64,000 nucleotides of DNA from a candidate division WOR-3 bacterium (lineage in GTDB: Bacteria; Hydrothermota; Hydrothermia; B15-G9; WFZT01). Below, one piece after another: positions 22,585-59,803 of the stretch; the stretch's first letter is position 1; the number at the start of each line of letters is the position of its first letter. The translations under genes and the position numbers were made by a program. The stretch spans positions 43,573 through 107,572 of the forward strand of contig JALUEE010000078.1 in NCBI GenBank assembly GCA_027053075.1, read 5' to 3'. The notes beneath the pieces are model-generated. The model did no database searches and had not been told where the DNA came from. It saw only the letters and a list, made by a program, of their open reading frames with translations.

Positions 22585-22587
22585 GTC

Positions 22588-39982: not shown

Positions 39983-40004
39983 GTGTAAACAGGGTAGTTG
40001 ACAC
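39983..40004. promoter_or_regulatory. Candidate operator GTGTAAAC-N6-GTTGACAC
   Basis: Near-palindrome, repeated at 46899, 46972 and 47041. Confidence 0.6.
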
Positions 40005-40126
40005 AGCAAAACCCGCATGAAGACTGAGAAAATTCCACAAATAGCATAAAAATACTGGAGAAATATAAAACATGATGATAGTATCTCTAACTTTGTAGAC
40101 TCTTTGTAACAATATATAATTCCCAA

Positions 40127-41861: not shown

Positions 41862-41864
41862 CAG

Positions 41865-42653
41865 ATGAGGAAGTATCTAAAAATATTCAAATTACAACTG
41901 GTAAATCAAATTGTATCCTACAGTATTTTTAAGGGCGACGCTATTCTGCTTATAGTATCTGATACTTTTGGGCTGATTTTTTCGGTGATATTTTTCAAAG
42001 CACTTTACAACAACATAGATTCTATTGGTAGCTGGAACTATGAATCAACACTTTTATTGGTAGGTATTGCAAATTTTGCGGATTCTTTTTATAGGTTATT
42101 ATTTGAGAAAAATGTGCGAAGGATTTCTGCTTTTGTAAGAAAAGGTACATTGGATTACGCGCTAATTAAGCCTATTGATGTACAATTTTTTCTTAGTATA
42201 GGAAGATTCAAATTCCAGACTTTATCTTCCCTGCTTTTCTCGATTTTGGTTATCCTTCACGCTATGAAATTATTACAACTTACAATTAATGTTTTTAACG
42301 TAATTGTATTTATCATTCTTTTGATAACAGGTGTGTCTTTGCGTTATATATTCAGTTTATATTCTTCTATCATTTCTTTTTACACTACCAGAGTTTCTGC
42401 TTTCTATTCTTTACAAATGGAGATTTTCAAATACGCTGAATATCCCTTTGATGTGTTTAGAGGATTAATTGAAAGGATATTTTTCACGTTTATATTTCCA
42501 ATTGTAATAATTGCCAATGCCCCGGCTATAGTTATTATACAAAATAGAAACTATTGGGTGATTTTAAGCGTCTTTATCAGTGTAGTACACTTCTATTTAT
42601 CTCGAATTTTGCTTTTTGCTTCAATAAATAAATACCAGAGTGCAGGAGGTTGA
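41865..42653 (+). CDS. ABC-2 family permease (DUF990-like)
   Basis: VRKGTLD..LIKP, YP..VF, C-terminal YQSAGG. Confidence 0.85.
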   Translation: MRKYLKIFKLQLVNQIVSYSIFKGDAILLIVSDTFGLIFSVIFFKALYNNIDSIGSWNYESTLLLVGIANFADSFYRLLFEKNVRRISAFVRKGTLDYALIKPIDVQFFLSIGRFKFQTLSSLLFSILVILHAMKLLQLTINVFNVIVFIILLITGVSLRYIFSLYSSIISFYTTRVSAFYSLQMEIFKYAEYPFDVFRGLIERIFFTFIFPIVIIANAPAIVIIQNRNYWVILSVFISVVHFYLSRILLFASINKYQSAGG

Positions 42654-42654
42654 T

Positions 42655-44517
42655 ATGTTTGTGTTGTTGATCATTGCGCTAAGCTTTAACAATTTTCACC
42701 GTTTCTTCCCGAATAGTGGGGAAATGATGGAAAACCGGACATTTGCGACTGTGGAACTGGTTAATGACACACTCGTGATTAATGCAAAATGCCACTCTAA
42801 GTATGGAATTTACACGGAATCTCTTGACAGGGATGAAATAAAGCCCGGTGAAGATTTCTTCGGTATTGTAATCACACAGGACAGGAATACGGGTTATTTC
42901 TTCCTGATAAATGCAAATGGTATAAAAAGCGACGGAGTAATCGTCCATAAAAGCACAAAAAGAAAAGCCTGGGATTATGTCTGGAATGTGAGCTCAAAGA
43001 GGTTTGATGATTCTTTATGGGTTGCAAATGTCAGGATTCCTCTTGATCGACTAAACCTTGAATACAAAGACAGTCTCATCCTGTACGTCAACCTCGTCAG
43101 GAGCGCAAAGCTCGGAGGCGTAGGCAGGTATGAGTCAGGGACTTATGTGCCCATTGTGGGCTCAAACTTCTATGATCTCACTTTTACTCAGAGGGTTGCT
43201 CTCCCGGTTGAGAAGAGAAAAGCAGGGACAAAGTTATTTATTGAGCCCTATGTGGCGGTTTACCGTGACAGTGGAGGTGTTTTCTTTAAAGAAGGGGAGG
43301 ACATAACTTTAAAGAATCAGACTGGAGAGCTTGCGATAACAGTGAATCCGGACTACGCAACAGTGGAAAGTGATGTGGAACGATTTAATCTCGACAAATT
43401 ACAGATGCTCTACTATCCGGAAAAGCGTCCCTTTTTCATGCATGGTTTTGAGCTATGGAACCTGCCCTTTATGGTACTTTACACGAGGAGCCTGACGGAG
43501 ATAGATGCAGGGGTAAAGGCAAATGTTAAGAGAGAAAATATGAGCTTCAATGCATTCCTTATTGAGGAAGGGGACACACTGTCAGGCTATTTTAGAAGGA
43601 AACGTCTCACCGGTGGAGTCAGGGGATTATACTCAACCGAATACGGGGACTTTGGGCTCTTTTATCTAAGTAGCAGGGACAGTTTTGAAGCAAAAGGTCT
43701 TGATGCAATGTTTTACCTTCCCTTTCAGCTCAGAGTAAATATGCAATATACACTGGACCGTTCGTCAAAGAGTGATTTCTTTTTACACATTTACCGGTTT
43801 GTTGAATCCGGAGTGGATGTGGAAGCCGGGTTGGAGAGACTTGATAGTGTGAGAATAAATACAGCTTACATACCATATCCCTTATACACTCGCTCCGCAT
43901 GGCTTTATCTCACCTACAATTTTTCAAGGGATAGCAAAATCTTACCCAATGGCTACTTAAGTATAGGTGGGACACATGGAGAATACCTAAACGGAAAACT
44001 CTATGAAAATAGTGGTTCAATAGTGGCCTCAGCTGGAATTCTCAGTAATCTACGGGTGGTATATAACCTTATACCCTAGAGAAGGAACGCTGGCAATACG
44101 ATATATGATAACTTGTTGCATTACTTTGAGATAGACTACCAGCCCCTGACACATCACTACATTGAAATTGAGACACAGTTTGGTCGTTACTTTGGAGGGG
44201 TCCAAAAATACTACTCTGCAGAATATTCGTACAAAGGTGAAAAGCTCTTGCTCGCATCTGGATACGGCTACGACAGCGAGCCTTTTTACACGCAGAAGCG
44301 CATATATTTGAAGGCAAAATACAATCTTACCAATGACTTAAGGGCAAGACTCTTTGTGCAGCATTCTGAGATTTCAAAAAGGAATGAGGTAAACTTTTTG
44401 ACGGAATACCGCATAAAGCCTGGAACTTTCCTTTATTTTGTGATAAACAGGACCGAAATAAATGGCTCCCCGCAGGTTAATTTCATGGTTAAGTTTAAAA
44501 GTTATGTGGGGATATAG
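42655..44517 (+). pseudogene. CBM9/DUF5916-type outer-membrane protein interrupted by one in-frame TAG (44077-44079)
   Basis: NPDYATVESD...YPEKRPFF; ORFs 42640-44079 and 44113-44517 share a frame, open in between. Confidence 0.7.
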
Positions 44518-44852
44518 ATACAATAATAAATCCTCATTTCTAATACCATAATGTCTTTAAATTAACCGGGAATATTTCCATAATCAGCACATAACGTGGA
44601 ACATCAAATTCATCTCATTGAATTCCTCCCCCACGCACTCTTGTGCGTGGGGGAGGTTGGGAGGGGGTAACCTTGATATAAATTTAAAGAGGCCCCTTCC
44701 CTACCTTCCCCACAAGCAAAGCTTGTGGGGAAGGAGATTCTTAAAAAATTTAAAAGTGCATCATTTAATCGGTTTTAGTATAATAAAATGTGTGGTTCCA
44801 CATTCACCATGGTAAATTTGATTTAAGTCGATATTAATTCCCTGGGGGATTT

Positions 44853-46796
44853 ATGGTGCTGATACTTTTATTGGCAGGAATTTTGGTTAGAGTAAATGTT
44901 GTTGATTCTTCGTTGAGGCATATAAAAGATGCTGAGATAGTGATAAAATCCGATGGAGAGGTTAAGAGGGTGGGGGAGGGCGACTTCGTCGCCCTCCCCC
45001 ACCCTCTTAATATTTTCTACATCTCCGCTCCCGGCTGGCACTCCATTCAGGATACACTCTACCTGACCAAAGACACCACTCTAACCTTCATCCTTACCCC
45101 AATCGAATACAAAACTGAAGAAGTTGAAGTTATCTCTTCACCATTACCATCAGGAGATGTGAAAATTAAGAGAGAATCTATTATTGAAACACCATCTCCC
45201 ATAGCTCCTGATCCCTTAAGGCCCATATTGAATCTACCGTTTGTTGAGCCTGGAAATGAGCTCTTACCTTTTTCATTCTATGTAAAAGGTGCTGTACCAG
45301 GTGAAAACTCTGCCTTTATCGAAGGTTACCCCCTTGTTTTCCCTTTCCATTTTGGCTTTACAACCGCTGTTCCTGTCTATTCTTTAAAATCTTATGACTT
45401 TTACACGGTCTATATTCCACCTGAACTTTCCCTGAAGGTGTCTTCGGCCATCAATTTTCATTTAAGGAATGATAGGACAGATGAACTCTTTGTTGATCCA
45501 ACCTCATCTATCAATTTTGTCCATTCGAGAAAGGACTTTTTAGCTTCAATAAGATTCACATCCATGTCGCTTCCGGTCTATTTAATGACCAAAAATATTC
45601 TCTACTATTTTGGAGATGTTATCGGGAGATTTCGCAATTTCATTTCATATATTTCCTATGACTTTGCACGGGACAGTGTTACTGATATGATAGAGTGGGA
45701 TTTTCTAAATTTTATGTCAGGAATGAGGATTGGTGAGTGTAGGGTGTATTTTAGCAGCGGTATTTATCATTTGAAATATCTGGATACAGGTGAAAAGGAT
45801 GCTTCCAGCTCAGAAAGCTTTGGGATTGTGGGAAAAGCTCCATTTTCTCTTGGCTTCCATTTTAGATTTTTGAAAATTGATGCAAATTCGAAATACTTCC
45901 CGTGGATGAACGGCAGCTATAGGGTTTTTGAAGGCCAAATCTGGAGAGGAATGAAGTTTGGTGGCTTTCGTATTACACCTATGTTCAAGATAATAAAAAA
46001 TGGGAGGTGGAAGATTGACCTCATGCCTCAATTTGGATTTGGATACCTGTGGAGAAGATATTATTTGAGAATCACATCTGGTGCCAATTCACAGGTGGAA
46101 TCTTCACCTAATAGCGGATGGTTAGGTGTGGCCAATAAAATGACAAAAAATTATTATTTGCAGGCTGAATCCGGTGGAGAAAAAGTTACATTTGGTGGAT
46201 TTGTAAGATATTATCCCCATGAGTATTACATAGCCGAGCTTGCAAGGGTAGATACTGTTATCAGCAGTAGTGACACCCTATGGAACCTAATTCCATACGA
46301 TTCACTTTTCCATGTAAGGAAATTTGCCGCAGGTGCTTATGTCTCGTTTTCTTTCGGAAAGCAATTCTGGCGATTGAGTGGAGATGTGGGTATTTTGAAA
46401 GGATTTGAGAGCACGGGAAAAACAAAGTTTCCACTCCCATACACTCCGGAAATTTCAATTAAACTCATGCCATCTCTTAGATGGGGTAAGAACGTGATTG
46501 ATGTTCCCATTTACTTTAAGAGTGGAATTAAGATTCCTGAGTTTTATGGTGACACCGATATTGGACCTATAGTATATGAGAAGCCCAGGACTATTAATTC
46601 AAAGGTTTACCTCAGGGTAGATGTAAGCTGGGCACACAGGTTTCACTTCCTGGGCTCAGAGAGCAGGTTTGTTCTTGGAATATTTAATCTAATTGGTATT
46701 AAGCCCGACATTGGATTTGAACCGGGCGAGGATAAATTTGTAAGAATTCCCATCCCCTCAGCAGGTGTGTGGATAAAATTTACTAAGAATTATTGA
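44853..46796 (+). CDS. TonB-dependent receptor-like outer-membrane protein
   Basis: N-terminal Ig-like part, plug-like DPLR..LNLP.V..FYVKG...EN...IEG.P...PFHF, terminal RVD..GIFNL..PIPS.G. Confidence 0.7.
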   Translation: MVLILLLAGILVRVNVVDSSLRHIKDAEIVIKSDGEVKRVGEGDFVALPHPLNIFYISAPGWHSIQDTLYLTKDTTLTFILTPIEYKTEEVEVISSPLPSGDVKIKRESIIETPSPIAPDPLRPILNLPFVEPGNELLPFSFYVKGAVPGENSAFIEGYPLVFPFHFGFTTAVPVYSLKSYDFYTVYIPPELSLKVSSAINFHLRNDRTDELFVDPTSSINFVHSRKDFLASIRFTSMSLPVYLMTKNILYYFGDVIGRFRNFISYISYDFARDSVTDMIEWDFLNFMSGMRIGECRVYFSSGIYHLKYLDTGEKDASSSESFGIVGKAPFSLGFHFRFLKIDANSKYFPWMNGSYRVFEGQIWRGMKFGGFRITPMFKIIKNGRWKIDLMPQFGFGYLWRRYYLRITSGANSQVESSPNSGWLGVANKMTKNYYLQAESGGEKVTFGGFVRYYPHEYYIAELARVDTVISSSDTLWNLIPYDSLFHVRKFAAGAYVSFSFGKQFWRLSGDVGILKGFESTGKTKFPLPYTPEISIKLMPSLRWGKNVIDVPIYFKSGIKIPEFYGDTDIGPIVYEKPRTINSKVYLRVDVSWAHRFHFLGSESRFVLGIFNLIGIKPDIGFEPGEDKFVRIPIPSAGVWIKFTKNY

Positions 46797-46898
46797 TCAA
46801 TGTAATTATATCATGCATCGTGACTTTCCTGAAATTCCAGACTCAAATTTATCAAAAGGGGCACAAATTCGAAACGAGTTTATACATGTTCCACAGAA

Positions 46899-47063
46899 GT
46901 GTAAACAAGGTAGTTGACACAGCAAAACCCGCATGAATACTGGGAATATCCCACTAAATAGTACAAAAGTACTGTAAACAATTAGTTGACACACATAAGT
47001 TGTGATACTATCAACACTTACAACATTTAAAAGCAAACCAGTGTAAACTAATTAGTTTACACT
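46899..47063. promoter_or_regulatory. Three operator-like palindromes upstream of lanthipeptide precursor
   Basis: 46899-46920, 46972-46992 and perfect AGTGTAAACTAATTAGTTTACACT 47040-47063. Confidence 0.7.
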
Positions 47064-47135
47064 TTGCATTGAACCTCATAAATGCAAGAGACGAAAATCC
47101 TCTATATTACTATACTTTACGTTTCGTTATTTCTA

Positions 47136-47151
47136 CGGAAGAAAAATTGCT
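47136..47151 (+). promoter_or_regulatory. Possible sigma54 promoter
   Basis: CGGAAGAAAAATTGCT has GG-N10-GC spacing with TTGC; -24 match imperfect. Confidence 0.45.
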
Positions 47152-47204
47152 ATTAAATAATAATGGTAGCGCGCTATCGAAAAACTTAAAAAGGAGGTAA
47201 AGCT

Positions 47205-47342
47205 ATGTATAGAGTGCTATCACTGCAAAGAATGGGAACGAGAGTAATGAATGACGATAATGGCGGGTGTCACGGAAGCTGTATGAGTTATCTCTTCTGT
47301 TCAACTCTGAGTATAGGTTGTGGACGGGGACGTGGAAAGTAA
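47205..47342 (+). CDS. Class III lanthipeptide precursor A1 (45 aa; not in ORF track)
   Basis: MYRVLSLQRMGTRVMNDDNGGCHGSCMSYLFCSTLSIGCGRGRGK; AAGGAGGT RBS; LxLQ leader; two S-x-x-S-x(2-3)-C motifs. Confidence 0.92.
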   Translation: MYRVLSLQRMGTRVMNDDNGGCHGSCMSYLFCSTLSIGCGRGRGK

Positions 47343-47345
47343 AAA

Positions 47346-47382
47346 TATGGTGCCGAGCACCCTGCGGGTGCTCGGCACCATA
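47346..47382 (+). terminator. Stem-loop between precursor and lanKC
   Basis: 17-bp perfect stem, TGC loop; no U-tract on + strand, so probably an mRNA stabiliser or attenuator. Confidence 0.6.
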
Positions 47383-47402
47383 AAAACCTGACTAAAGCTA
47401 CC

Positions 47403-50003
47403 ATGTACGAACAGATTGACCTTTTTCAGTTTATTATTCTGAATAGTGATTTTTATATTCCTATTGACTATATTGAGTGCGGAGAAAATTACAAACAGAT
47501 TGTTAAATCTCATCTAAAACTGGGATGGCATTTAGAAGATCAGGGTATCTGGACCTTCGTATTTAACGAAGCGAATGAGTTCCCCGAGCAGGGCTGGAAA
47601 ATTCATATATCAGCTATTCCCCAAAATGCCGGAGAAATCCTGCAAAAGACAGTTCCAATCCTTGTTTCAAATAAGGTAAACTTCAAATTTGCCTGTAATG
47701 AATTTGTGCTAACTCTCTTGAACTCCAAAAATTGGAGTCGAGGAGGGAGTGGAAAGTTCATTACTATCTATCCCCCTGAGAGATTATTCAAGCCACTTAT
47801 CCAGGAACTTTACAACGAATTACACAGTTATATGGGCCCCTATATTCTGTCAGATATGAGATATAGAGACGCTAAGGTGATTTACTATCGTTATGGTGGA
47901 TTTCAGCCGATGGAAAAGTTGACGGTCGAGGGATACAAAATTTCGCTTATCAAAACTCCCGAAGGAGAATTCATACAGGACAATAGACCTCCATTCTATA
48001 ATCCTCCACCATGGGTAAAAGACCCTTTTGGTCAAGAGCCCAGGTATGAGGAGAATATTCTCCTGAATAATAGGTATAAAGTCCTATTCCCCATCTCGTT
48101 TTCCAATTCAGGAGGTGTATATAAAGCAGTTGATACTTTTAATAATCAGGAGGTTATCCTTAAAGAGGCAAGGCCGTTTGTTAACCTTCAGGAGAATATA
48201 TCCGCAAAGGACCTTCTTGAAAAAGAATTTGAAATCCTCAAAAGAATCGAGGACCTTGGTATAGCTCCAAAACCGATTTCGTATTTTAAAGAATGGGAAC
48301 ATTTCTTCCTTGTTGAGGAATTTATTAAGGGGATGGATTTGAGAGAATATGTTGTCGTTAATTCTCCCATATTGAAAACCAATCCAGAGTTTGAAGACTA
48401 CAAAAATTATTTCCGGTCGTATCGGAAGATATTTCTTAATCTCATTGACTCTATCGAGAAATTGCACAGTAGGGGAATTATTTTCAGGGATCTATCACAT
48501 AATAACATCATTATTCAGGATGACCTTAGTGTTAAGTTGATAGATTTTGAGAGTGCCTATCTGATGGGAAGTGACAGGTGGATTCAAATTTTCACTCCAG
48601 GGTTTGCCTCTCCCAACCAGATATTGAATGAAATGCCAGAATTTTCTGACGATATCTATTCAATTGGTGAAAACATGATGGCCGCGATATTCCCCATAAA
48701 TCAATTTTTCTCACTTGCTCCCGATGCACGCGATAGATATTTGAAGGACATTATTGTTGATATGAATTTCCCAACAAAATTAAAGAAAATAATCAGTATC
48801 AGCACCAGTGGAGATGACCGCGTTGATTTGAGGTTTCTAAAATCCAGTTTGAGAAAACTTCGATTCCCTAAGCCTTTTAAAAGACAAACAAGCGTACTTA
48901 CAGATGCAGAGATAAACAGGATAATAAAGGGTATAAGGAAGTACCTTTTCAATTCCAACAAGTGGGAAAGGGAATTGGGAGCTCCGTTTCCTCTTTACGC
49001 TGAAGCATACATGACAAATATTTACAGTGTTGCTTATGGTATTAGCGGGATTTTGCTGTCTATGCTGAAATGTGGCTTTTCACCACACAAAAAGCAACTT
49101 GAGTGGTTTGTAAATCAGGATTTTGATGAGAGAGACATTCCACCTGGCCTTTATATTGGGCTTAGTGGGATTGCATGGACACTTCTGGAATTAGGGCACG
49201 AAGAGCTTGGAATTAAAGTATTCGATAAAGCCTTATCCCATCCCCTTGTATCGGATTCAGTTGATATGTTTTACGGTATGGCAGGAATTGGAATCACCAG
49301 CCTTCAGTTTTATCACAAATTCAAGGAGGACATTTATCTTTCCCACGCGGTGCAACTTTCAGAGATGATTTCCAATAAGCTTGAGGAGGCTGACAATTCA
49401 CTATATTTCAAGGGAACAGATGGTGATGTTCATTACGGATATGCACATGGTGCTTCAGGTGTCGCACTTTTCATGCTTTACTTATATTTAGCAACAAGAG
49501 ATGAAAGATTTTTAAACCTATCTCAAAGGCTCATGGATTTTGACCTCTCTCATGCTGTTGATTACAAAGATGCAATTTCATGGCATCCATCTAAGGAGCA
49601 CAGTTCCACTGTAATGCCATACGTAAAGTATGGAACCTCTGGAATTATTTCTGTGTTGCTCAGAATTAATCAGGTAACTCCTTTCAAGCAAGAATATATA
49701 CACAAAGGTTTACAAGATATAACAAGAAAGTATGCCATATTCCCTGGACAACTTAATGGATTATCCGGAATGGGAGAGACTATAATCGACGCGATGCCTT
49801 TTAAGGGAAACCTTGATAACCATCTCCAAAGGCTAATAAAAGGTGTGTCTTTGTTTATGATAAAAAGACCCGAAGGCATCACTTTCCCTTCAGACGGACT
49901 ATTTCGCATAAGCTGTGATTACGGTACAGGGTGCAGCGGAATTATGTCTTTTCTTTGCAGGACTATTAATAGGGATAAACGGTTGCTCTTTGATCTCGAA
50001 TGA
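47403..50003 (+). CDS. lanKC: Class III lanthipeptide synthetase LanKC
   Basis: Lyase (QGWKIHIS, SGKFITIYP, YYRYGGF), kinase (SNSGGVY, LKEARP, RDLSHNN, IDFE), cyclase-like domain without obvious Zn-ligand motifs, RISCDYGTG. Confidence 0.95.
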   Translation: MYEQIDLFQFIILNSDFYIPIDYIECGENYKQIVKSHLKLGWHLEDQGIWTFVFNEANEFPEQGWKIHISAIPQNAGEILQKTVPILVSNKVNFKFACNEFVLTLLNSKNWSRGGSGKFITIYPPERLFKPLIQELYNELHSYMGPYILSDMRYRDAKVIYYRYGGFQPMEKLTVEGYKISLIKTPEGEFIQDNRPPFYNPPPWVKDPFGQEPRYEENILLNNRYKVLFPISFSNSGGVYKAVDTFNNQEVILKEARPFVNLQENISAKDLLEKEFEILKRIEDLGIAPKPISYFKEWEHFFLVEEFIKGMDLREYVVVNSPILKTNPEFEDYKNYFRSYRKIFLNLIDSIEKLHSRGIIFRDLSHNNIIIQDDLSVKLIDFESAYLMGSDRWIQIFTPGFASPNQILNEMPEFSDDIYSIGENMMAAIFPINQFFSLAPDARDRYLKDIIVDMNFPTKLKKIISISTSGDDRVDLRFLKSSLRKLRFPKPFKRQTSVLTDAEINRIIKGIRKYLFNSNKWERELGAPFPLYAEAYMTNIYSVAYGISGILLSMLKCGFSPHKKQLEWFVNQDFDERDIPPGLYIGLSGIAWTLLELGHEELGIKVFDKALSHPLVSDSVDMFYGMAGIGITSLQFYHKFKEDIYLSHAVQLSEMISNKLEEADNSLYFKGTDGDVHYGYAHGASGVALFMLYLYLATRDERFLNLSQRLMDFDLSHAVDYKDAISWHPSKEHSSTVMPYVKYGTSGIISVLLRINQVTPFKQEYIHKGLQDITRKYAIFPGQLNGLSGMGETIIDAMPFKGNLDNHLQRLIKGVSLFMIKRPEGITFPSDGLFRISCDYGTGCSGIMSFLCRTINRDKRLLFDLE

Positions 50004-51508
50004 AAAGATTGTATAGCATAATAAAACCTTTTGAGAGAGGATTTTGGGGACTTGTCCTGTATTCTCTAATTTTAAACATCTTTACTCTTTCAAATCCTCT
50101 TGTCTTAAAGTTCATATTTGACGAGGGTATCAAAGGGAAAAACCTTAGACTGTTTATTTTACTGGTTTCTATATTCATTTTTGTCTCGATATTCTGGAGA
50201 GTTTTAAATTACCATTACTCTTTGCTTCTGGAAAAATTCAAAATACGGGTTACAAAATACTGGCTTAAGAATACGATAAATGCTTTTCTAAAGAGGCCCT
50301 ACAAAGAAATAATCACAAAAGATTCCGGATATTATCTCTCGAGAATTTATGAAGAACCTGAATCACTGAGTAATGAGCTTGTTTCCGGTGCTATTGATGC
50401 TATAAATCTGGGGATTGGCTTGATTTTATCCCTGGCACTCCTGTTGTATTTTTCTGTCTATGCTACCCTCATCCTTTTTCTGATTATTCCCGTGACATAT
50501 TTTTTGTCCTCTTATTTTTCGCAAAAAATTAAAGAATATACTGACAAGGAGCGAGAGAGTGAAGCTAAATTAAGAGAAACGATAACTGATGTAATACGGT
50601 CTGTTAAGTTTATAAAATCTTTCCAGTTTCATGATTTTATAGTCGGCAAGTTTATAGACAGATTGTCTAAATTCTTATCCATCTACTTAAAAAATTTCGA
50701 ATATGCTACGGGTTTTGATACGCTAAGCTCTATATTTTTGTCTCTTTCTGAACTATCGGTGATTATAGTTAGTGGCTATTTAATGATAATCGATAAAATG
50801 ACGTTTGGTAGCTTCATGGGATTTATGAACACTTTCTGGGGGTTTATTGGTGCAGTCCAGAGATTTATAGGAATAATCCCGGAAATCGCTGGGGCAATGG
50901 CTATTTATGATAGGCTTGAAAACTTTATAAACGTGCAAAATGGCCGAGCGGTGCAGTTTGGTGAAAAAATTATTTTGAAAAATGTAAGTTTCTCTTACGA
51001 TGGGAAATCTCGGGTGTTAGACAATTTCTCACTGATTATTAATCCTGGTGAGAAAATCCTCATACTTGGAGAGAATGGCAGCGGAAAAACCACCCTTGCC
51101 AATATAATCTCTGGACTAATAATACCTGAGGGGCAGGTCACCCTTCTCAAGAAAGTAAGCTTGATGCCAGATAATCTCCCCTCATTAAGACTTCGCGAGT
51201 ACGCTGTTCTGGACGAAAGAAATAAGTTTTTTGAGTTAATAAAGCTTTTTCAGTTAGAGGATTACCTTGATAAGACACCAGGGGAGCTCTCTATGGGCCA
51301 GAGGAAGAAGTTCACAATCACACTTACCCTTATAAGAGATGCTGATATCTATATTTTTGATGAGCCACTTGTAAATCTCGATAGTTTGAGTAAAAATTTA
51401 GCAATGGATTTGATTTTTGAAAATACTTATCGCAAAACACTTATCATAATAAGCCACAATTCTATTAAGAATAGATTTGATAGGGTTATAAAACTTGAGA
51501 GGAGGTAA
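50000..51508 (+). CDS. ABC exporter (fused TMD-NBD), probable lanthipeptide transporter
   Basis: TM domain plus GENGSGKTT, LSMGQ, FDEP; ATGA overlap with lanKC; no C39 domain. Confidence 0.9.
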   Translation: MKRLYSIIKPFERGFWGLVLYSLILNIFTLSNPLVLKFIFDEGIKGKNLRLFILLVSIFIFVSIFWRVLNYHYSLLLEKFKIRVTKYWLKNTINAFLKRPYKEIITKDSGYYLSRIYEEPESLSNELVSGAIDAINLGIGLILSLALLLYFSVYATLILFLIIPVTYFLSSYFSQKIKEYTDKERESEAKLRETITDVIRSVKFIKSFQFHDFIVGKFIDRLSKFLSIYLKNFEYATGFDTLSSIFLSLSELSVIIVSGYLMIIDKMTFGSFMGFMNTFWGFIGAVQRFIGIIPEIAGAMAIYDRLENFINVQNGRAVQFGEKIILKNVSFSYDGKSRVLDNFSLIINPGEKILILGENGSGKTTLANIISGLIIPEGQVTLLKKVSLMPDNLPSLRLREYAVLDERNKFFELIKLFQLEDYLDKTPGELSMGQRKKFTITLTLIRDADIYIFDEPLVNLDSLSKNLAMDLIFENTYRKTLIIISHNSIKNRFDRVIKLERR

Positions 51509-51512
51509 AATT

Positions 51513-51692
51513 ATGTGGCAGGTCCTCAGTCTCCAGATTCTGGGGATGCAAAGCAAGGATAAAACAAAAGGGAAAAGTACCATGAGCTACTCTTTCTGCT
51601 CGCTCCTCAGTCTTGGATGTGAAACCAGCAAGAAAGGCAAAAAGAAACGCAGGATTAATTTAAAAAGTTCACTTAGTATAAAATGCGGATAG
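51513..51692 (+). CDS. Class III lanthipeptide precursor A2 (59 aa)
   Basis: MWQVLSLQILGMQSKDKTKGKSTMSYSFCSLLSLGCETSKKGKKKRRINLKSSLSIKCG; GGAGGT RBS; three S-x-x-S-x(2-3)-C motifs. Confidence 0.9.
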   Translation: MWQVLSLQILGMQSKDKTKGKSTMSYSFCSLLSLGCETSKKGKKKRRINLKSSLSIKCG

Positions 51693-51702
51693 GGGGTGAA
51701 AA

Positions 51703-53961
51703 ATGAAGCTAATTCTTCTATATCTCCTTATAAACTATGGAGCTGTTAAAGGTAAGGTGCTCGAAAAGGGCACATCAAGGCCCGTTGAGTATGCAGTTGT
51801 CGTTGTCTTCGATAAAAGTGGTAAGCAGGCAGGTGGGACTTATGCGGATTCCACAGGTGAATTTTTGGTTGAGAGGTTAAAACCCGGGAAATACTATGCC
51901 ACAGTGGATTTTATAGGCTACCAGAAGGCCCGAACTGACACGTTTACCATTAAGGATGGAGATGTGAAAGACCTCGGGGTTATTTATCTTTCACCCAGCT
52001 ATATTAAAACTTCCCCGGTTAAGGCAACGGCAAAAGCCCCAAGGGTTAGAAGAGAGGTTGACAGGACAATTGTCACCCCTTCACAGGATGTGATTTCATC
52101 AGGTGGGAATGCGAGTGATGTGTTACGAAATGTTCCTGGTGTCTCCGTTAGTATCACAGGTGAGGTCCTTATTAAAAACAGCAAAAATTACACAGTCCTT
52201 ATCAACAATAAGCCCACATTACTCGAACCTTCTCAGGTGTTGAAAGAAATTCCCGCATCCCAGATTGAAAGGATTGAGATAATAACCAATCCTTCTGCCG
52301 AGTATGACCCTGAGAGTAATGCTATCGTCAATATTGTGCTGAAAAAGTCCACATACAAGGTGGAGAACAGCTTTTCACTGAGATTCGGCACATTTTCTAA
52401 TTATGGTGTGTCTTTCACTTTAGGTGCTGTTAAAGGTAAAAACAGCTTTTATGGCATGGGAAATTACAATAAATATTCTCAGGCACTTCAGTATGAAATG
52501 GAAATGAAAAACCCATCTGACACAATTTCCCTTGATAAAACCAACTTCTATTCTCATGACCTGCCCAAAAACATTAGACTCGGGGCAAATTTGAACATCG
52601 GAAAACATGCCACCTTAACATTCGACGGTGAGGCCGGGAAATACATTCTGGATTACAGCGGTGACTTTCTCTACAGATCAGACTCCGGTAGCTACAGAAA
52701 TCCCATTGTCGCGAAATGGACCTCAAATTTCTTTTCAGGTTCCATAGATTTCTCCAGGGATTTTGAATCGGGTAGTATAGATGCCTCGCTTTATGCGGGG
52801 AAGTTAGATACAGATAAATCTCACGAGGCACCGAAGATTGTTGATGGGGATACAGTGGGTGGAATAAGAATGAAAGGAGACGGCAGCCTCAATCAACTAC
52901 GTTTTGACTTTTCAGCAGACAAAACCATTGGAAAATTCAAATTATCCACAGGATACAGGTATAGCATGAAAAAATTTGAATCCACAACATCAACGGAAAT
53001 TATCGGTGATTCGACATACGAAAATCCTCTAAACAGCAGAAGGGTTGTCAATGCCGGATATGTTAAAATAAAGAGTAGTTACAGGAAGTTAAATTATGCT
53101 GTCGGTCTGAGATTTGAGGGAACAGACAGGAAAATCGGGAATTTCACCATAAAACGGTCCGATATTTTCCCGTCATTCTATGTTTCCACCCGTTTGAGCC
53201 AGTTCTCCAAGCTGTCCTTTAGCTATTCGAGGAGGATTCGAAGGCCTTCCGCTTATGATCTTAATCCCGTTGACGTATGGGAGACTTCCAATGAGGTGCA
53301 CAAAGGAAATCCATCGCTGAAGCCGCAGTTTAACGATTCCTATGAGCTATCTTTTGAAACACCTCTGGGAGAGAAAATTTATCTCTCGGCTTCAGGATAT
53401 TATCTTTATTCGAAAGATTACTTTAACAAAGTGGAGGAGGTTGGGGATTCCGGGATCATAGTTAAGAAAGAGGTTAATTTCCCGTATAGAAAAGAGATTG
53501 GTGGTAATTTTGACCTTGAATGGAAACTCTCAAGGTTTATGAGATTCACACTCTCACCTGAGATTTATCGTTACAGGTTCAAAAAAGACACCGGGATTGA
53601 AGATGGAATGTTTTACATGGTCCGTGCTATGTTCTCAGGCCTTGTGATTCCCATTGGATTTATACAGGCCGGTGTGCAATATATCGGTCCTTACACAGAG
53701 ACATTTGGTAAGATGGCCCCTGTCTTTGGTGCGCAATTTGGGTATATGATTCAGATAAAGAATATCGCTGTGACACTGGCATTTATGGATGTCTTTCACA
53801 CCTATAAATCATCATGGACGAACGAATCCGATGGAAACTACATCCACAAGGAGATGTCCATGAGATACCCTTCCATTTCCATCTCAATAAGGTACATCAA
53901 CCGTAAACTCCAGATAGGAAAGGGAGAAAGAATCAACTCAGAGGATATTAAGAGTATGTGA
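51703..53961 (+). CDS. TonB-dependent receptor / outer-membrane beta-barrel
   Basis: Carboxypeptidase-regulatory-like N-terminus, plug IERIEIITNPSAEYD, YSRRIRRP, GNPSLKP. Confidence 0.88.
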   Translation: MKLILLYLLINYGAVKGKVLEKGTSRPVEYAVVVVFDKSGKQAGGTYADSTGEFLVERLKPGKYYATVDFIGYQKARTDTFTIKDGDVKDLGVIYLSPSYIKTSPVKATAKAPRVRREVDRTIVTPSQDVISSGGNASDVLRNVPGVSVSITGEVLIKNSKNYTVLINNKPTLLEPSQVLKEIPASQIERIEIITNPSAEYDPESNAIVNIVLKKSTYKVENSFSLRFGTFSNYGVSFTLGAVKGKNSFYGMGNYNKYSQALQYEMEMKNPSDTISLDKTNFYSHDLPKNIRLGANLNIGKHATLTFDGEAGKYILDYSGDFLYRSDSGSYRNPIVAKWTSNFFSGSIDFSRDFESGSIDASLYAGKLDTDKSHEAPKIVDGDTVGGIRMKGDGSLNQLRFDFSADKTIGKFKLSTGYRYSMKKFESTTSTEIIGDSTYENPLNSRRVVNAGYVKIKSSYRKLNYAVGLRFEGTDRKIGNFTIKRSDIFPSFYVSTRLSQFSKLSFSYSRRIRRPSAYDLNPVDVWETSNEVHKGNPSLKPQFNDSYELSFETPLGEKIYLSASGYYLYSKDYFNKVEEVGDSGIIVKKEVNFPYRKEIGGNFDLEWKLSRFMRFTLSPEIYRYRFKKDTGIEDGMFYMVRAMFSGLVIPIGFIQAGVQYIGPYTETFGKMAPVFGAQFGYMIQIKNIAVTLAFMDVFHTYKSSWTNESDGNYIHKEMSMRYPSISISIRYINRKLQIGKGERINSEDIKSM

Positions 53962-54155
53962 TTTAGGAATCAAGTCTCGTCCCAAAATTCACTATAACCT
54001 TTTTCAAGAAGTAGCACTAAAAATTGAATGAACATCAGTGGACCAGAAAACAATTTTCCAAAGTCTTGGTTATTCAGAAATTTTAAAAAGCGTACAAAAT
54101 TATTGACACGACTATTGAGAAATGTGAAAATACAAATGATTAAAAGGAGGAGGTT

Positions 54156-55454
54156 ATGATGTCAGTAACATCCTTGATATTAGTGTTATATAGTTATTTG
54201 ATAAATGCCGGCTGTTTGTCGCTAACTGTCCCTGTGGATGCCCGAAATGCTGGAATTGGCAGATTCATGGGAGTTGCACTTTTTGAATCCCCTGCTGCAA
54301 TGGCGTATAATCCGGCGGCTATTGGATTCAAAGATGGATTCTCAAGTTACACCACCAACTTAATGACAGGTGGTTTGATTGATCCGTTGATACCTGTCAT
54401 TACATCTGACAGTATCAGACGTGTCCCATCCTGGTTTGCTAATGATACGACTTCACGGAATGAAATGCTTGGTTTTACTTACAAATTGCCATTCAAGGGC
54501 GATTTTGTGTTGGGAGTTCAACAGCAAACTTTTTTCGCGGGACGGTTCATAGCATTCAACGATACAATTAATCCAAATGATCGTATCTTCGAAATCGGGT
54601 TGGCGAAACGACTTAGACCCTATTTGAGTTTAGGAGTTGGGTTTAAGCATATACTCCAGACTTTTGTCTCCGAAGCGATGGCAGAATCGCTATGTGGTTC
54701 AAGAGCCTGTGCGCATGCAAAAGATTACGCTTTCGATTTTGGACTCGCTTTTAAATCCGAATATGGTGTGGATTTGGGATTGGCTATACAAAATATAGGA
54801 CCTGATATAAAGTATCACAGCGGATCAAAACTCCCACTTCCAAGACTTTTAAAAGTGGGGGCAGCTTTTCGTCTTGATAAATCCTATGATAAATTAATGA
54901 AATCGTCTATCGGGCAATTCTTTGAAATCCTTTTCGACTATGAATACCAGCGGGATCTGGTAAAAGGACCACCGGTTAAATGGTATATGGCAGGGACTGA
55001 GATAGGATTTCTGAAAACCATATATATCAGGTTTGGCAACGTGCATGTCAGTGACACACTTGAGGATTTTGATTACGGAACGAAGGGATTGGGAATTAAG
55101 CTTGGAGTGGTGGATGTAGATGTTGCCGAGAACTGGCTCAAACCAAATCCGCATTACCACCTTCTTGTCGGAAAATATTGGGTATCTGTGTCATTGCATT
55201 ATCCATACAAAAGGTTCCCTTACACCAATCCCGCTTTAAACGAGGCAGTGGGAGTTATGGATGCATTGTTAGTTCCCGGTGGTGGGCATATTTATCATGG
55301 CAACCCAAGGGGAATAGCGTATCTTGTTGCAACCGCTGGTTTAATGCACAAATATCTCTCGACCAATAACAAAACATACAGTAGTTTGGCCGCAGGTGTT
55401 TATGTATTCTCCCTGTTCGACTTCTTTTTTAATCTGTCAAATTGGCATTTATAG
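54156..55454 (+). CDS. PorV/PorQ-family outer-membrane protein with hydrophobic C-terminal extension
   Basis: LTVPVDARNAGIG, AYNPAAIG, FDFG, QNIGP..LPR.LKVG. Confidence 0.7.
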   Translation: MMSVTSLILVLYSYLINAGCLSLTVPVDARNAGIGRFMGVALFESPAAMAYNPAAIGFKDGFSSYTTNLMTGGLIDPLIPVITSDSIRRVPSWFANDTTSRNEMLGFTYKLPFKGDFVLGVQQQTFFAGRFIAFNDTINPNDRIFEIGLAKRLRPYLSLGVGFKHILQTFVSEAMAESLCGSRACAHAKDYAFDFGLAFKSEYGVDLGLAIQNIGPDIKYHSGSKLPLPRLLKVGAAFRLDKSYDKLMKSSIGQFFEILFDYEYQRDLVKGPPVKWYMAGTEIGFLKTIYIRFGNVHVSDTLEDFDYGTKGLGIKLGVVDVDVAENWLKPNPHYHLLVGKYWVSVSLHYPYKRFPYTNPALNEAVGVMDALLVPGGGHIYHGNPRGIAYLVATAGLMHKYLSTNNKTYSSLAAGVYVFSLFDFFFNLSNWHL

Positions 55455-55674
55455 TCTGATGTCTTTTGTATAGAGCTCCAAAGTATTATTGTAGTTCTAC
55501 AGTAGGTCACTACGCAGATATTTACTGTCTGAGAGATTATCAAACTAAATTTGTAATCACAGACTTATCTTTGACACGAAAGGAGGATTTTTAAAGAAAA
55601 ATTTTTGAAATAAGGCTCATTTTATTTACCTCACTACCCCTTCTTGTAGTGTTACGTTATCGGTAGTAAATTTC

Positions 55675-55703
55675 TTGACATTACCAGGACACAACTCTAT
55701 AAT
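55675..55703 (+). promoter_or_regulatory. Consensus sigma70 promoter of the transposase
   Basis: TTGACA-17 bp-TATAAT, 9 nt before ATG. Confidence 0.85.
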
Positions 55704-55712
55704 GGTGATACC

Positions 55713-57299
55713 ATGCCATTCATCAGAGAAATCACTCATAAAAGAAAATCCGGCAAAGAGGTAACATATATCCAAATCGTCCACTCTTACAGAGTCGGCA
55801 AAAAAGTTAAACAAAAAATCATCGGTACCCTCGGCAGAAAAGACCAACTCCTGAAATCCGGCTCCCTCGAAAGATTGGCCTATAAACTCCTGGAGATAGC
55901 TGGTAAGCTTGAGGAGTTTCAGAACGAGAGGAAGGGGATGCCAAATCTTTTCCTCAAGGATGCGAGGGAGATGGGAAGGGCATATCTTTTCAAGTATCTC
56001 TGGAAGAAGGCAGGGTTACATAAATTTTTCAGGAGAGTAGCGGAGAAGGAGGGATTGAGTTTTGATCTTTCGGAGGCGATATACGAGATGGTGTTGAACA
56101 GGATAACAGAGCCGACGAGCAAGAGGAGACTGTTTATGGAGTGGAGGGAGGAGCATGATCTGGAGGATAAGGGGTTGGAGCTACATCATTACTACAGGGC
56201 ATTGGATTATCTTGTGAGAGTGAAGATGACACTTGAGGATTATTTGTACATGAGGGGAAGGGATTTATTTTCAGGGCCACCGAAGGTGGCATTTTTTGAT
56301 ACGACGTCGACATATTTTGAGGGTGAGGGGCCGGAGGGATTGGCGGAATATGGATACAGTAAAGATAAGAGGCCGGACAGGAAGCAGGTGGTGATAGGGG
56401 TGGTATTGGGGGAAGGGGGATTGCCGATATATCATAATGTATGGGAGGGTTCGCAGATGGATTTGGTGAGTTTTCGGGGTGTGTTGAGGGAATTGAGGGA
56501 AAGGTGGGGATTAGAGGAGGTGATATGGGTAGCGGACAGGGGATGCGTATCACCGGGGTTGCTGGAAGTATTGGATAAGGAGGGGATAAAGTATGTAGTG
56601 GGGGTAAAGATGAGGAAGGAGAGGGAGGTAAGGGACGAGGTATTAAGTAGAGGTGGGCGTTATAGAGAGATGGATGGAGGGTTGAAGGTGAAGGAAGTGA
56701 GGAATGGAGGGCACAGGTATGTGGTATGTTATGATCCGGTGACGGCGGAGAGAGACAGGAGAGTAAGGGAGGAGATAATAGAGTCGCTGGAGGATGGGTT
56801 AAAAGGAAAGGGGATGGGGGTGATACAGAAGGGATATAGAAGATATTTGAAGAAGGGTGGAGGAAGATATGAGATAGACAGGGAGAAGGTGGAGAAGGAG
56901 TCGAGATACGATGGGAAGTGGGTATTGAGGACGAATGTGGATTTAGAGACGGAGGAGGTAGTGAGGGTATACAAGGATTTATGGAAGGTGGAGAGGGCAT
57001 TCAGGGACATGAAGGATGTGTTAAAGATAAGGCCGATATATCATTGGAAGGAAGAGAGGGTGAGGGGGCATATAATGGTGTGTTTTTTAGCGTTATATTT
57101 AATGCAGTACCTGGAGTTCATGATGGGTGAAGAGAAGGGTGAGGTGGGGAAGTTGATGAAGGCGATGAGGAGGTTGAAGGTAGGGGAAGTGGAGCTGAAT
57201 GGTAGGATGTACAGGGTAAGGACGGAGGTGGATAATGAGGTAGAGGGGATGCTGGGGCGAATAGGGTTGAAGTTACCGCCATTGATACGAGCCATGTAA
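55713..57299 (+). CDS. IS1634-family DDE transposase
   Basis: FFDTTSTYFEG, GYSKDKRPD, VADRG, Y..LW.VERAFR..K, RPIYHW. Confidence 0.93.
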   Translation: MPFIREITHKRKSGKEVTYIQIVHSYRVGKKVKQKIIGTLGRKDQLLKSGSLERLAYKLLEIAGKLEEFQNERKGMPNLFLKDAREMGRAYLFKYLWKKAGLHKFFRRVAEKEGLSFDLSEAIYEMVLNRITEPTSKRRLFMEWREEHDLEDKGLELHHYYRALDYLVRVKMTLEDYLYMRGRDLFSGPPKVAFFDTTSTYFEGEGPEGLAEYGYSKDKRPDRKQVVIGVVLGEGGLPIYHNVWEGSQMDLVSFRGVLRELRERWGLEEVIWVADRGCVSPGLLEVLDKEGIKYVVGVKMRKEREVRDEVLSRGGRYREMDGGLKVKEVRNGGHRYVVCYDPVTAERDRRVREEIIESLEDGLKGKGMGVIQKGYRRYLKKGGGRYEIDREKVEKESRYDGKWVLRTNVDLETEEVVRVYKDLWKVERAFRDMKDVLKIRPIYHWKEERVRGHIMVCFLALYLMQYLEFMMGEEKGEVGKLMKAMRRLKVGEVELNGRMYRVRTEVDNEVEGMLGRIGLKLPPLIRAM

Positions 57300-57799
57300 G
57301 TGTAGTAGTTATGGAGGGATATGTCAATTTGTAGTGATACATCCATTATTCAAAATCCCATGAAAACCGTTGTGCCGCAAGGGAAAGCTCGAATCCCCCG
57401 TGTCAAAGTTGAGACAGAGAAAACTATTCGAGTAGTATTGTTTTGTTGATATCTCTAAGATTCTATCCTGGTTACCAGCTTGGCCTTGTTAGACCATAGT
57501 GTAAAATCACGAAAGGACTAAAAACTAAAGCCTACACACCTAAAACCCGCGTGGATACTGAGAAAATACTCGTGAATTACTTTAAACAAGCAGTGAATGT
57601 GTTGCATAAATTTCAATTTATCTGGAATTTTAAAGGGAATTCCCTATCTCCCCTCGCGCGAAGTGTGTGGGGCAACATTCTCAAATACACTCAACAGGGA
57701 GGTGACACGCATAAATTTTTCCCATCTATGTATTAACCTGTGTTAGAAGAAAGATGTTATTAGTGCTCCTAAACTTCTTCAAAAGGAGGGTTATTAGAT

Positions 57800-59803
57800 A
57801 TGTGGATGCTGGTGATGCTGTCGCTTGTAATCCCACGATTGGACGGGGAAATAAAACTGGATGGAAAACTAAATGACCCCGTGTGGGTAAAGGCTTACCA
57901 CGTAAAAGAATTCAGAGAGCTCTCCCCGGTTTACAACAAAATTCCAGATTACTCTACAGAGGCTTATGTATTTACAACCTCAAAGGCCATCTACGTGGGT
58001 TTTAGATGCTCAGGTCCCCCACCAATTGTGGAAAATAAACCACGTGACATGGTGGCTGCTGATTATGTCACCTTCTATATCGCTCCATTTGGGTCACCTT
58101 CTACGGTATTTGCTTTCTCTGCTGATGCAGGTGGAAATATCGAAGACTTTACACAGAAAAATGGAATAATTGATATATCTTGGGATGCAAACTGGCAGGC
58201 TGCCTCTTACGTGGGAGATTTTTTTTATACTGTGGAGATGCGTATTCCTTTTAAATCTCTCACCTATAACAGAAGGACCCCATGGGGAATAAATTTCTCC
58301 AGGAATGTCAGCAAAAATAGGGCAATTTATTACTACAAGTTACCCCGTAAAGGTGATTTACTCCCTCAAATGCAGTATGTAACAGTGAAAGCTCCCATTA
58401 ACATAACTGGCCAGCTCATTCCCCAATTTGTATGGCGTAAAGATACAACCCTGAATTTCTTTGGAGAGAAAGAAGTCAAAACATATAAAAATATAGCGGG
58501 AGACTTCAGAGTTAGTGTGTCCGGGAATTCTTTTCACCTCACTGTAAATCCAGATTTTGCAGATGTCGAAGCAGACCCATTTTATGTGAATATATCTAAA
58601 TACCCAAGGTTTCTACCAGAGAAAAGACCATTTTTTGTTTACGATATGGATATTTTTGAGATGCCTTTCCTGATGGGAATGCACGTTGTGAAACTTGTTT
58701 ATACAAGGGCAATTGGCTCCACCATGATGGGGGAAATTCCCATAGACTGGGGTGCCAAGGCCGTATTGAGACAGAAAATTTTAAAAACCGGTGCCCTCGC
58801 TGTTAAAACAGATTCAGGTGAAACATTTTTATATTTCAGGCCCCTTTTTAACCTTTCAAAGTCACTTCAGGTGGGAGGTCTTATAGGAAATTATAGCCAC
58901 AGTGAAACCCAGAATCGCTTATTTTCCTTTGATTCCAAATTTAGGTGGCATAACTTCTCTGCTGTTTTGATAGGTGGCCGGTCAATCTACAAAGAGGAAG
59001 ATACCGATGAAGGAAACTTCTTAGATATGGGAGTTAGCTGGAACAATAAAGATTACGATATTACATTGGTTTTTGAGAGGATAGATTCACTTTTTGATGT
59101 CAGCAAGATTGGATTTGTTCCTGGAAGCGGATATCGGTTTAACATTAGCTTTAATAGAAGTTTATACCTCAAGAAAATTCCGTACCTCGTGACAGGTGTT
59201 AGTTTCACACGGGAAAGGGATTTAAACGAAAAACCATCGGCTGAAATATCCCATCAGCTTACCATGTATTTGAAGAATGGTAACTTCATCTCGTCTTCTA
59301 TATGGGAAGGTAACAGATATAGCTTTGACCCTTTCAGGAGGAAACTCGTTCATTTCAGAAATTGGGGAGCGTATGCAAACTTCATGCTCAATCTGCCTCC
59401 ACACTCTGTAAGAGTTTATGTTTCACGTGAGAGAACCTACAATTACCTGACGGGAAAGATAGGGCTCTACGACTATGGAAAGATCAGTTTTAACATGCAT
59501 GTATCCAAATCCATATCTTTATCGAACTCCTTATCGTTCTCGCAGGGGGCCGGCTTAAAAAGAACGATTTCAACTTTAATTACCGGGGATGTTAACCTGC
59601 GAAAAAGATTATCAGTGAGAATAGGGTATGAGAATGTATTTTCGGAGTCAGAACTTTATAGACCTTTTTACAGATACTGGGTGTTTGTGAAGTACCAGCT
59701 CGGCATTGGTGGAATATATGTGGCAATGAGTAATGAAAGGGACCAGAGTGGCGTATTAAACTCTGTTTTAGCCATCAAATTCAAATATTTCGTGAGCTTA
59801 TAA
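57800..59803 (+). CDS. CBM9-like + DUF5916-type outer-membrane protein
   Basis: IKLDGKLNDPVW, VEMRIPF, NPDFADVEAD...PEKRPFF. Confidence 0.8.
   Translation: MWMLVMLSLVIPRLDGEIKLDGKLNDPVWVKAYHVKEFRELSPVYNKIPDYSTEAYVFTTSKAIYVGFRCSGPPPIVENKPRDMVAADYVTFYIAPFGSPSTVFAFSADAGGNIEDFTQKNGIIDISWDANWQAASYVGDFFYTVEMRIPFKSLTYNRRTPWGINFSRNVSKNRAIYYYKLPRKGDLLPQMQYVTVKAPINITGQLIPQFVWRKDTTLNFFGEKEVKTYKNIAGDFRVSVSGNSFHLTVNPDFADVEADPFYVNISKYPRFLPEKRPFFVYDMDIFEMPFLMGMHVVKLVYTRAIGSTMMGEIPIDWGAKAVLRQKILKTGALAVKTDSGETFLYFRPLFNLSKSLQVGGLIGNYSHSETQNRLFSFDSKFRWHNFSAVLIGGRSIYKEEDTDEGNFLDMGVSWNNKDYDITLVFERIDSLFDVSKIGFVPGSGYRFNISFNRSLYLKKIPYLVTGVSFTRERDLNEKPSAEISHQLTMYLKNGNFISSSIWEGNRYSFDPFRRKLVHFRNWGAYANFMLNLPPHSVRVYVSRERTYNYLTGKIGLYDYGKISFNMHVSKSISLSNSLSFSQGAGLKRTISTLITGDVNLRKRLSVRIGYENVFSESELYRPFYRYWVFVKYQLGIGGIYVAMSNERDQSGVLNSVLAIKFKYFVSL

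Follow-up and report, generated by a model that had tools for sequence, protein, structure and literature searches.

The characterised class III lanthipeptide systems (those of labyrinthopeptin, SapB/AmfS, curvopeptin and NAI-112, and those of the enzymes ThurKC, TherKC, PneKC and SalKC) have in common a lyase-kinase-cyclase, LanKC, free of zinc ligands, precursors with an LxLQ leader and tandem S-x2-S-x2-5-C motifs, an ATP-binding cassette (ABC) exporter and a gene cluster devoid of a protease. Here we describe a cluster which is like them in all of these traits and occupies positions 46899–53961 of a 64,000-nucleotide stretch (hereafter the window) of contig JALUEE010000078.1 from a candidate division WOR-3 bacterium. 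It is unlike the characterised systems in its host, a diderm of a candidate phylum, in the presence of a gene for an outer-membrane barrel and in its likely sigma-54 promoter. In our reading, to which we assign a probability of about 70%, this is a class III cluster in which LanKC would close rings in two paralogous precursors, the ABC exporter would carry the products into the periplasm and the barrel would pass them outward.

The cluster is real and intact. All of its parts lie on the plus strand, and each was located again in the order given in a preliminary description of this DNA: a block of three palindromes (46899–47062; copies at 46899–46920, 46972–46992 and 47041–47062), the gene for precursor A1 (47205–47342; 45 aa), a 17-bp hairpin (47346–47382), lanKC (47403–50003; 866 aa), the ABC exporter gene (50000–51508), the gene for precursor A2 (51513–51692; 59 aa) and the gene for the barrel, a TonB-dependent transporter (TBDT) of 752 aa (51703–53961). 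All five open reading frames (ORFs) are open, A1 and A2 have strong ribosome-binding sites (RBSs), and the genes are tightly packed, the start of the ABC gene overlapping the stop of lanKC and A2 ending 10 nt before the barrel gene. The exporter consists of membrane and ATPase domains. The earlier statement that no leader protease is encoded in the cluster was confirmed, as domain models detected no protease family among 17 neighbouring proteins and no C39 peptidase domain in the ABC protein; neither a TolC nor a membrane-fusion partner was found in the cluster with such models. A search of window positions 39000–58000 against Rfam gave zero matches.

The assignment to class III, with LxLQ leaders and S-x-x-S-xn-C cores, is borne out by profile scores, domains and motifs. 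RamC_N, Pkinase and LANC_like Pfam domains are present in one polypeptide, which scores 691 bits with the class III model NF038151 (cut-off 575) and 485 with the class IV (LanL) model NF038150, below the cut-off of 650. Catalytic residues of the lyase and kinase were matched by motif to the list available for TherKC; those of the lyase (K66, H68, K95, K118, Y123, D151 and R163) as well as those of the kinase (K254, E275, D363, N368 and D381) are invariant in 17/17 aligned homologues. The zinc-ligand positions are taken by K742, L784 and N785, where the class IV-type relatives have Cys, Cys and His; those aligned were 8 of the 20 loci with WCxG/CHG zinc motifs. The predicted structure (pLDDT 87) matches ThurKC with a TM score of 0.78 and 25% identity, and identity to the solved full-length LanKC and LanL chains is only 19–25%.

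Judged from its sequence, LanKC is outside all three subclasses for which catalytic residues have been published (III-a, III-b and III-c). The Arg-Asp-Ser-Phe-Asp set reported for the cyclases of the III-a/III-c enzymes ThurKC and TherKC (PMC13504147) is replaced by other residues at the aligned positions, and the substrates of these subclasses are of the STxSNxC type, the precursors of the present cluster being of the SxxSxxxC type. The III-b enzymes (PneKC, SalKC) have the motifs FPVHYYG, QxxQxxRxLPY and GxxxAGDxG, reported as signatures of PneKC (PMC11330476), and a His-Asp pair. These are not kept: the site of the first motif reads FPLYA at position 529, with no His, and the Asp of the last motif is retained. 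For subclass III-d the chain compared was the kinase domain of CurKC. Because the III-a/III-c residues and the III-b motifs are both missing, the type of ring is unreadable from the cyclase.

Contrary to the preliminary description, in which they were called dissimilar, the two precursors are paralogous, a third motif being what sets them apart. They share the LSLQ leader and 11/15 residues of the two-motif core, and their local alignment score of 81 was matched by 0/5000 shuffles. A1 contains the motifs S25/S28/C32 and S33/S36/C39, a Gly/Arg tail and two extra cysteines (Cys22 and Cys26) without conservation across the precursor family. In A2 the motifs S22/S25/C29 and S30/S33/C36 are followed by a strongly basic linker of 15 residues that sets off the third motif, S52/S55/C58; overall, the peptide has 13 Lys/Arg versus 2 Asp/Glu. 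Unmodified A1 and A2 have average masses of 4919.7 and 6572.8 Da, respectively. No variation was seen at S25, S28, C32, S33 and S36 (A1 numbering) among 11 precursors, nor at the residues of the third motif among 7/7 aligned copies of A2. With a model of the precursor family, A2-type peptides were found in 7/64 genomes of the class and A1-type peptides in five of those seven; in the genome of the window (G000, 2.44 Mb; its contigs carry C-numbers and compared loci L-numbers) the model finds A1 and A2 only, and a genome-wide scan for short ORFs with LxLQ and S/T-x-x-S/T-x2-5-C returned 13 ORFs. The scores of the precursors with the models NF033212 (SapB/AmfS) and NF038159 (lanthi_III_b) are below cut-off, at 17.7 versus 25 for A1, a weak match to NF033212, and 21.1 versus 30 for A2. 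Compared with its counterpart in genome G004, A2 displays 10 synonymous changes and 1 non-synonymous change and is therefore a selected gene; the comparison with G005 is saturated. A precursor with three motifs is known in class III, namely stackepeptin (PMC8341899). When the two are compared by description, not by sequence, A2 is like it in the third S-x2-S-x2-5-C iteration and unlike it in that this motif stands behind a basic linker and that the peptide is paired with a two-motif paralogue. The hairpin between A1 and lanKC (z −6.95; 0/200 shuffles as stable) has an equivalent in locus L014 (z −6.12), and none that is significant in L017 (z −1.42). Its likely effect is to stabilise the message of A1 or to attenuate read-through, and it would favour that message.

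The motifs suggest that LanKC very probably modifies both A1 and A2: it would dehydrate serines and close labionin or lanthionine rings, two in A1 and three in A2, and the ABC exporter would likely move the peptides into the periplasm. The leader would probably be removed by general peptidases encoded elsewhere in the genome, which has genes for one M1 peptidase (C4:51347–53239), two neighbouring M16 proteins (C47:1877–3537) and one S9 peptidase. In other systems members of these families, among them unclustered M1 and M16B proteases, mature class III peptides in trans (PMC8341899, PMC8960859). For the last step the barrel may provide the exit through the outer membrane, a proposal whose chances we place a little short of even. 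As for the role of the products, most class III peptides have weak or no antibacterial activity (PMC8341899); since this is so and the present peptides are strongly cationic, we tentatively prefer surface-binding or signalling to the action of a classical antibiotic.

The pairing of A2 with the barrel is the most unusual feature of the locus and is missing from the preliminary description. The barrel protein comprises an N-terminal CarboxypepD_reg extension, a plug and, in the DSSP list of the model (pLDDT 83.6), 22 strands, and belongs to family PF14905. Residues 100–117 of the model are of low confidence, and a TonB box was not identified. All Foldseek matches of the model are TBDTs (11–15% identity), and a sequence search of the PDB gave 0 matches at E ≤ 1. 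TonB, in the form of TonB_C proteins, is encoded in the genome. In a tree of the barrels that of the window falls in a seven-row clade (support 100/99), in which 7/7 members have a gene for a Cys-motif peptide ending 9–41 nt upstream of the barrel gene. These pairs are set in four LanKC clusters, one deletion strain and two radical SAM (rSAM)/SPASM clusters with unrelated peptides; as the genomes are kin, the seven pairings are not seven independent events. In the sister clade the barrel gene is located directly after an ABC gene or stands alone. The barrels tagged with LanKC, rSAM or a cluster ABC gene (14/14) are confined to two clades (21/106 rows), and none of the other 85 rows is tagged, many of their loci having short flanks. 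A single clade for all cluster-linked barrels was not supported, with 44% of the bootstrap trees recovering it. Most PF14905 copies examined in WOR-3 are located among housekeeping genes. In the 14 other WOR-3 genomes with LanKC, a PF14905 barrel adjoins the cluster in five and a DUF5916-like gene in five; two have no barrel nearby and two are cut by contig ends. Among 80 LanKC loci from other records the barrel model matched only L068, which is likely misbinned, and L069, the same locus as L017; other TBDT families would escape this model, because it was built from WOR-3 sequences.

Several further loci were recorded during these comparisons. L186 (G042, contig C27) and L187 (G056, contig C324) are rSAM/SPASM clusters with an ABC exporter, peptides that have Cys at every fifth position and barrels of the same clade as that of the window; they are uncharacterised, their best NCBIfam matches are below cut-off, and the rSAM gene of L186, like one of the two in L187, is seemingly split. 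At L182:2952–3407 (G055) a DUF5916 gene is preceded by two small ORFs that are rich in Cys and hydrophobic at the N-terminus; these ORFs lie opposite a sister-clade barrel. The Luteibacter LanKC loci L079, L085 and L086 contain an opposite-strand ORF that may resemble a different TonB-dependent receptor. Within G000 itself, a probable rSAM/SPASM gene (C63:1897–3434) is preceded by a 40-aa ORF, and an exporter of the ABC type (31% identical to that of the cluster) together with a DUF5916 gene at a contig end (C112:19383–22892) is perhaps a second, cut cluster for a ribosomally made, post-translationally modified peptide (RiPP).

For the barrel, one precedent is at hand per direction. Methanobactin is reportedly taken up again by TBDTs (MbnT). 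The TBDT Oar of Myxococcus xanthus, by comparison, secretes PopC (PMC6434023). Both are like the barrel in the TBDT fold with plug and TonB, as likened by description rather than by sequence. Closer is the prediction that PF14905 proteins export graspetides (Makarova et al. 2022, PMC8939145): the same Pfam family is encoded there beside a RiPP cluster. That work is mostly on Bacteroidetes and is prediction only, whereas in the present case the upstream peptide gene is fixed and the maturase is LanKC or rSAM. In the literature on TBDTs and RiPP export, with most subscription journals outside the scope of the search, no experimental RiPP exporter was found.

The palindromes upstream of A1 are of the type GTGTAAAC-N5/6-GTTKACAC and start 73 and 69 nt apart. 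This pattern gave five strand-matches at four sites in the window and 0 in 100/100 shuffles. A second full block (183 nt, 75% identical) is present at C4:41504–41684, with a copy also in G004; the blocks of the window and of C4 were the only two full ones found in the 2.44 Mb of G000. Partial copies occur in the window at 57542 and at 39983; the latter (39983–40058; 76 bp, 88%), detected by repeat comparison, is a duplicate of part of the first palindrome block, from which it lies 6916 bp upstream, and stands 77 nt past the gene of a candidate activator, described below. The copy on C4 precedes a canonical TGGCA/TTGCA sigma-54 site, which in the alignment falls on window positions 47136–47151 (plus strand), a GG-N10-GC candidate with a perfect TTGC and a degenerate −24 half. 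In the two full copies the −24/−12 sites stand 75 and 78 nt past the last palindrome, ahead of the RBS; the background of the loose −24/−12 motif is 76/1033 RBS-ATG sites (7.4%). Genes for rpoN and sigma-54 enhancer-binding proteins are present in the genome. A canonical −24/−12 site was also found in 3/14 of the other WOR-3 LanKC clusters; two of these have the gene of an activator shortly upstream, and G005 carries a copy of the activator directly upstream of lanKC. The palindromes, which had been taken for operators, are indeed present upstream of the cluster, but are more likely the upstream enhancer sites of a sigma-54 promoter and, given the copy on C4, are common to another operon. It thus appears reasonably likely, if somewhat less so than the fate proposed for the leader, that transcription would start at the sigma-54 promoter and be driven through the three palindromes. 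The candidate for the driver is an enhancer-binding protein encoded at 38949–39905 on the plus strand, which has no sensor domain and reads GTFTGG for GAFTGA, a loop that its orthologues in the genus keep; its role may be considered with nearly even odds. Scans for sigma-70 promoters (24 versus 22.4 expected) and for terminators (10 versus 6.3) were at chance level, and no paper joining lanthipeptides, sigma-54 and enhancer-binding proteins was found in the literature searched.

Other arrangements of this kind were noted in the same genomes. At C17:36200–36400 a sigma-54-like promoter with a triple TGTAAC-N5-GTTACA precedes genes for a secreted protein and for tetratricopeptide repeat proteins. 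The block and canonical site at C4:41503–46406 (L021) and on contig C65 of G004 (L067) precede three genes, one lipoprotein-like and two barrel-like, the first gene of the two-barrel pair being missing in G004. The 6.9 kb between the activator gene and the lan promoter (39983–46898), with an ABC-2 operon, a DUF5916 gene and a barrel-like gene, is flanked by the 76-bp, 88% repeats and is possibly an insertion that parted the activator from its target. The palindromes were also considered as ends of the IS1634-family insertion sequence (IS) located downstream, since TTGACAC is found in both; this was rejected, because the IS ends at ∼55565 and ∼57410 and has different flanks.

A form of the locus without lanKC exists in sister strains. 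In G004 window position 46786 is joined to 51466, so that A1, lanKC and the ABC gene are lost and A2 and the barrel gene are retained; the segment of 4.68 kb that can be missing (about 46784–51465) contains the promoter, A1, lanKC and most of the ABC gene. The same joint is found in two sequencing runs, X4 (a single contig, with 252 letters on its short side) and X11 (37 letters), where the full form is represented by contigs as well; X1 and X2 have no such joint. Contigs of the full form cover the locus in 4/4 runs compared; the window possibly derives from one of these, X1. Insertion of A1, lanKC and the ABC gene into the lineage of the window was rejected in favour of deletion, since the short form retains the last 13 codons and the stop of the ABC gene. 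The deletion form is compatible with import by strains that do not make the peptide, and equally with a recent remnant that is silent. In G005 A1 was not found at L013; where it would be expected, two CRISPR-like direct repeats (33 nt matched) and one spacer are present (L013:1141–1251), and this repeat has no copy in G000.

A number of points weigh against the reading preferred here. TBDTs normally import. PF14905 is present in 120/272 WOR-3 genomes and G000 contains 7 copies of DUF5916-like genes; being so common and multi-copy, respectively, they make adjacency of a barrel the weaker evidence. Barrels related to that of the window occur without any cluster in L180–L183 and L188, and two TolC-family proteins encoded in the genome could serve in trans. 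The cyclase has neither the III-a/III-c catalytic residues nor the III-b signature motifs, and certain SxxSxxxC peptides receive lanthionine only (PMC8341899). A −24/−12 site is lacking in the other 11/14 clusters, and the GAFTGA loop of the local activator is degenerate. Strains without lanKC keep the barrel with a dN/dS of 0.07, a selection that may predate the loss. It is mainly because these strains retain A2 together with the barrel that import is weighed here against export. Were the barrel an importer, the peptide would exit otherwise and be retaken as a metal carrier or signal, as in the case of methanobactin and MbnT, and the deletion strains would be non-producing users of a shared product. 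The solved structural neighbours of the barrel are all import receptors, the barrel is retained in the deletion form of G004, X4 and X11 (with the full form also in the two runs), sister-clade barrels are found as orphans in genomes that lack a LanKC match, and A1 carries an extra Cys-His-x-x-Cys stretch. Import is nonetheless the less likely direction in our view: conservation in the family does not extend to the extra Cys and His of A1, pairs of ABC exporter and barrel persist without the enzyme in L179, L184, L185 and L201, which fits one outward route, and the deletion removes the promoter too, so that the remnant may be silent.

Export through the barrel would also be mistaken if the barrel were unrelated to the peptides, a passenger in an island of envelope genes rich in barrels (DUF5916, PorV-like, TonB-like). 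The flanks do contain several other outer-membrane genes, the family is common in WOR-3, and the two partners occur apart, L015 having an A2-type precursor without a PF14905 barrel and L018 a barrel without such a precursor. The constancy of the peptide gene 9–41 nt upstream of all seven barrels of the clade, in varied settings and with two maturases, and the restriction of tagged barrels to 21 of the 106 rows render this quite improbable. Still less probable is a cluster in decay, or a cryptic one, that yields no product in this lineage. The deletion in sister strains, the missing A1 of G005, the GTFTGG loop of the activator and the splitting of lanKC into two ORFs in G063 and G114 would be compatible with decay, whereas the five open ORFs, the strong RBSs of both precursors, the invariant catalytic residues and the full form in every run compared weigh against it. 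Finally, the palindromes might be a small selfish repeat or a recombination site rather than a promoter element, considering that the block recurs on C4 and partly at 39983 and 57542 and that G000 holds other intergenic repeat families. This we regard as improbable: there are only two full copies in the genome, both point at a −24/−12 site before an RBS, and the third sigma-54-like promoter, on C17, has a different triple palindrome of its own.

The host belongs to WOR-3, class Ca. Hydrothermia, which NCBI now files as Caldifarciminia; three of the four runs compared are labelled hydrothermal vent metagenome. WOR-3 branches beside the Fibrobacteres-Chlorobi-Bacteroidetes (FCB) group. The earlier designation as a probable FCB-group diderm was hence correct as to a poorly studied diderm, but not as to an FCB phylum proper. 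LanKC was found in 15/272 WOR-3 genomes, in 12 of them above the model cut-off. Among 7993 LanKC candidates, 1546 proteins had E ≤ 1e-50. A FastTree phylogeny was built from 89 enzymes, none of them characterised; it excluded L069 (the duplicate of L017) and loci with no LanKC ORF of >600 aa (L063, for example). The enzyme of the window falls in a seven-row clade (SH support 100), all members of which have an A2-type precursor, and the other WOR-3 enzymes fall elsewhere; a single origin of all WOR-3 LanKCs was rejected, as the 14 rows need five changes. LanKC clusters are also present in Acidobacteriota, Pseudomonadota, Myxococcota and Deinococcota. Taking these phyla into account, together with class III peptides reported from Myxobacteria (PMC12328550), the diderm host is not new in itself. 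Locus L068, on a contig titled Ca. Saccharibacteria, has the same A1-lanKC-ABC-A2-barrel cluster, falls inside the WOR-3 clade and is likely misbinned. In Arsukibacterium, Shewanella, Ferrimonas and an acidobacterium (L075, L102, L111 and L080, respectively) the clusters contain 5–8 tandem single-motif precursors, and many diderm LanKC clusters have MacB/FtsX-like permeases nearby, as judged by eye.

The surroundings of the cluster contain further genes of interest. An intact IS1634-family transposase gene is located at 55713–57299 (NF033559, 391 bits), and G004 as well as the runs X2, X4 and X11 have the empty site of this element. Upstream, a DUF5916-like outer-membrane gene (42640–44517) is broken by a stop near 44077; an uninterrupted copy, 92% identical, is found at C102:3799–5676 behind another ABC-2 operon. 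Downstream lie a gene for a PorV/PorQ-like protein (54156–55454; score 86 versus a cut-off of 90) and, at 59856–61272, an ABC-2 pair that weakly matches MutG-type immunity. Genes at 21171–24167, including a prefoldin-alpha-like ORF (22588–23046), look archaeal by eye.

The LanKC class, the three-motif precursor and the idea of a barrel as exporter are all precedented. A search of the literature pairing WOR-3 with lanthipeptides found no such cluster described, although supplements may list WOR-3 clusters automatically. Of the novelty claimed in the preliminary description, the part that stands is that the combination of these elements in WOR-3 appears undescribed in the literature searched; LanKC clusters as such are common in diderms, and three-motif precursors are known. 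The fixed pair of peptide and barrel common to two maturase classes likewise appears undescribed there. As a lanthipeptide cluster alone, the locus is one of many. One may speculate, at odds even lower than those of import, that the pair is a plug-and-play module, in which an A2-like companion peptide with several rings travels with its own barrel and the maturase is swapped between LanKC and radical SAM enzymes. If this were true, A2 would be the specific cargo of the barrel or a ring-stabilised subunit of it, the barrel would be an exit channel for RiPPs, and the secretion of such peptides by diderms that have no cluster-encoded TolC would be explained. LanKC, being outside the three subclasses with published catalytic residues and coming from a vent organism, may be of use in work on the cyclase mechanism and is possibly heat-stable. 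The crossing of the outer membrane by RiPPs without a cluster-encoded TolC is mostly untested in diderms, and for this question the locus provides a compact test case of four genes (enzyme, ABC exporter, peptide and barrel) together with a natural deletion strain.

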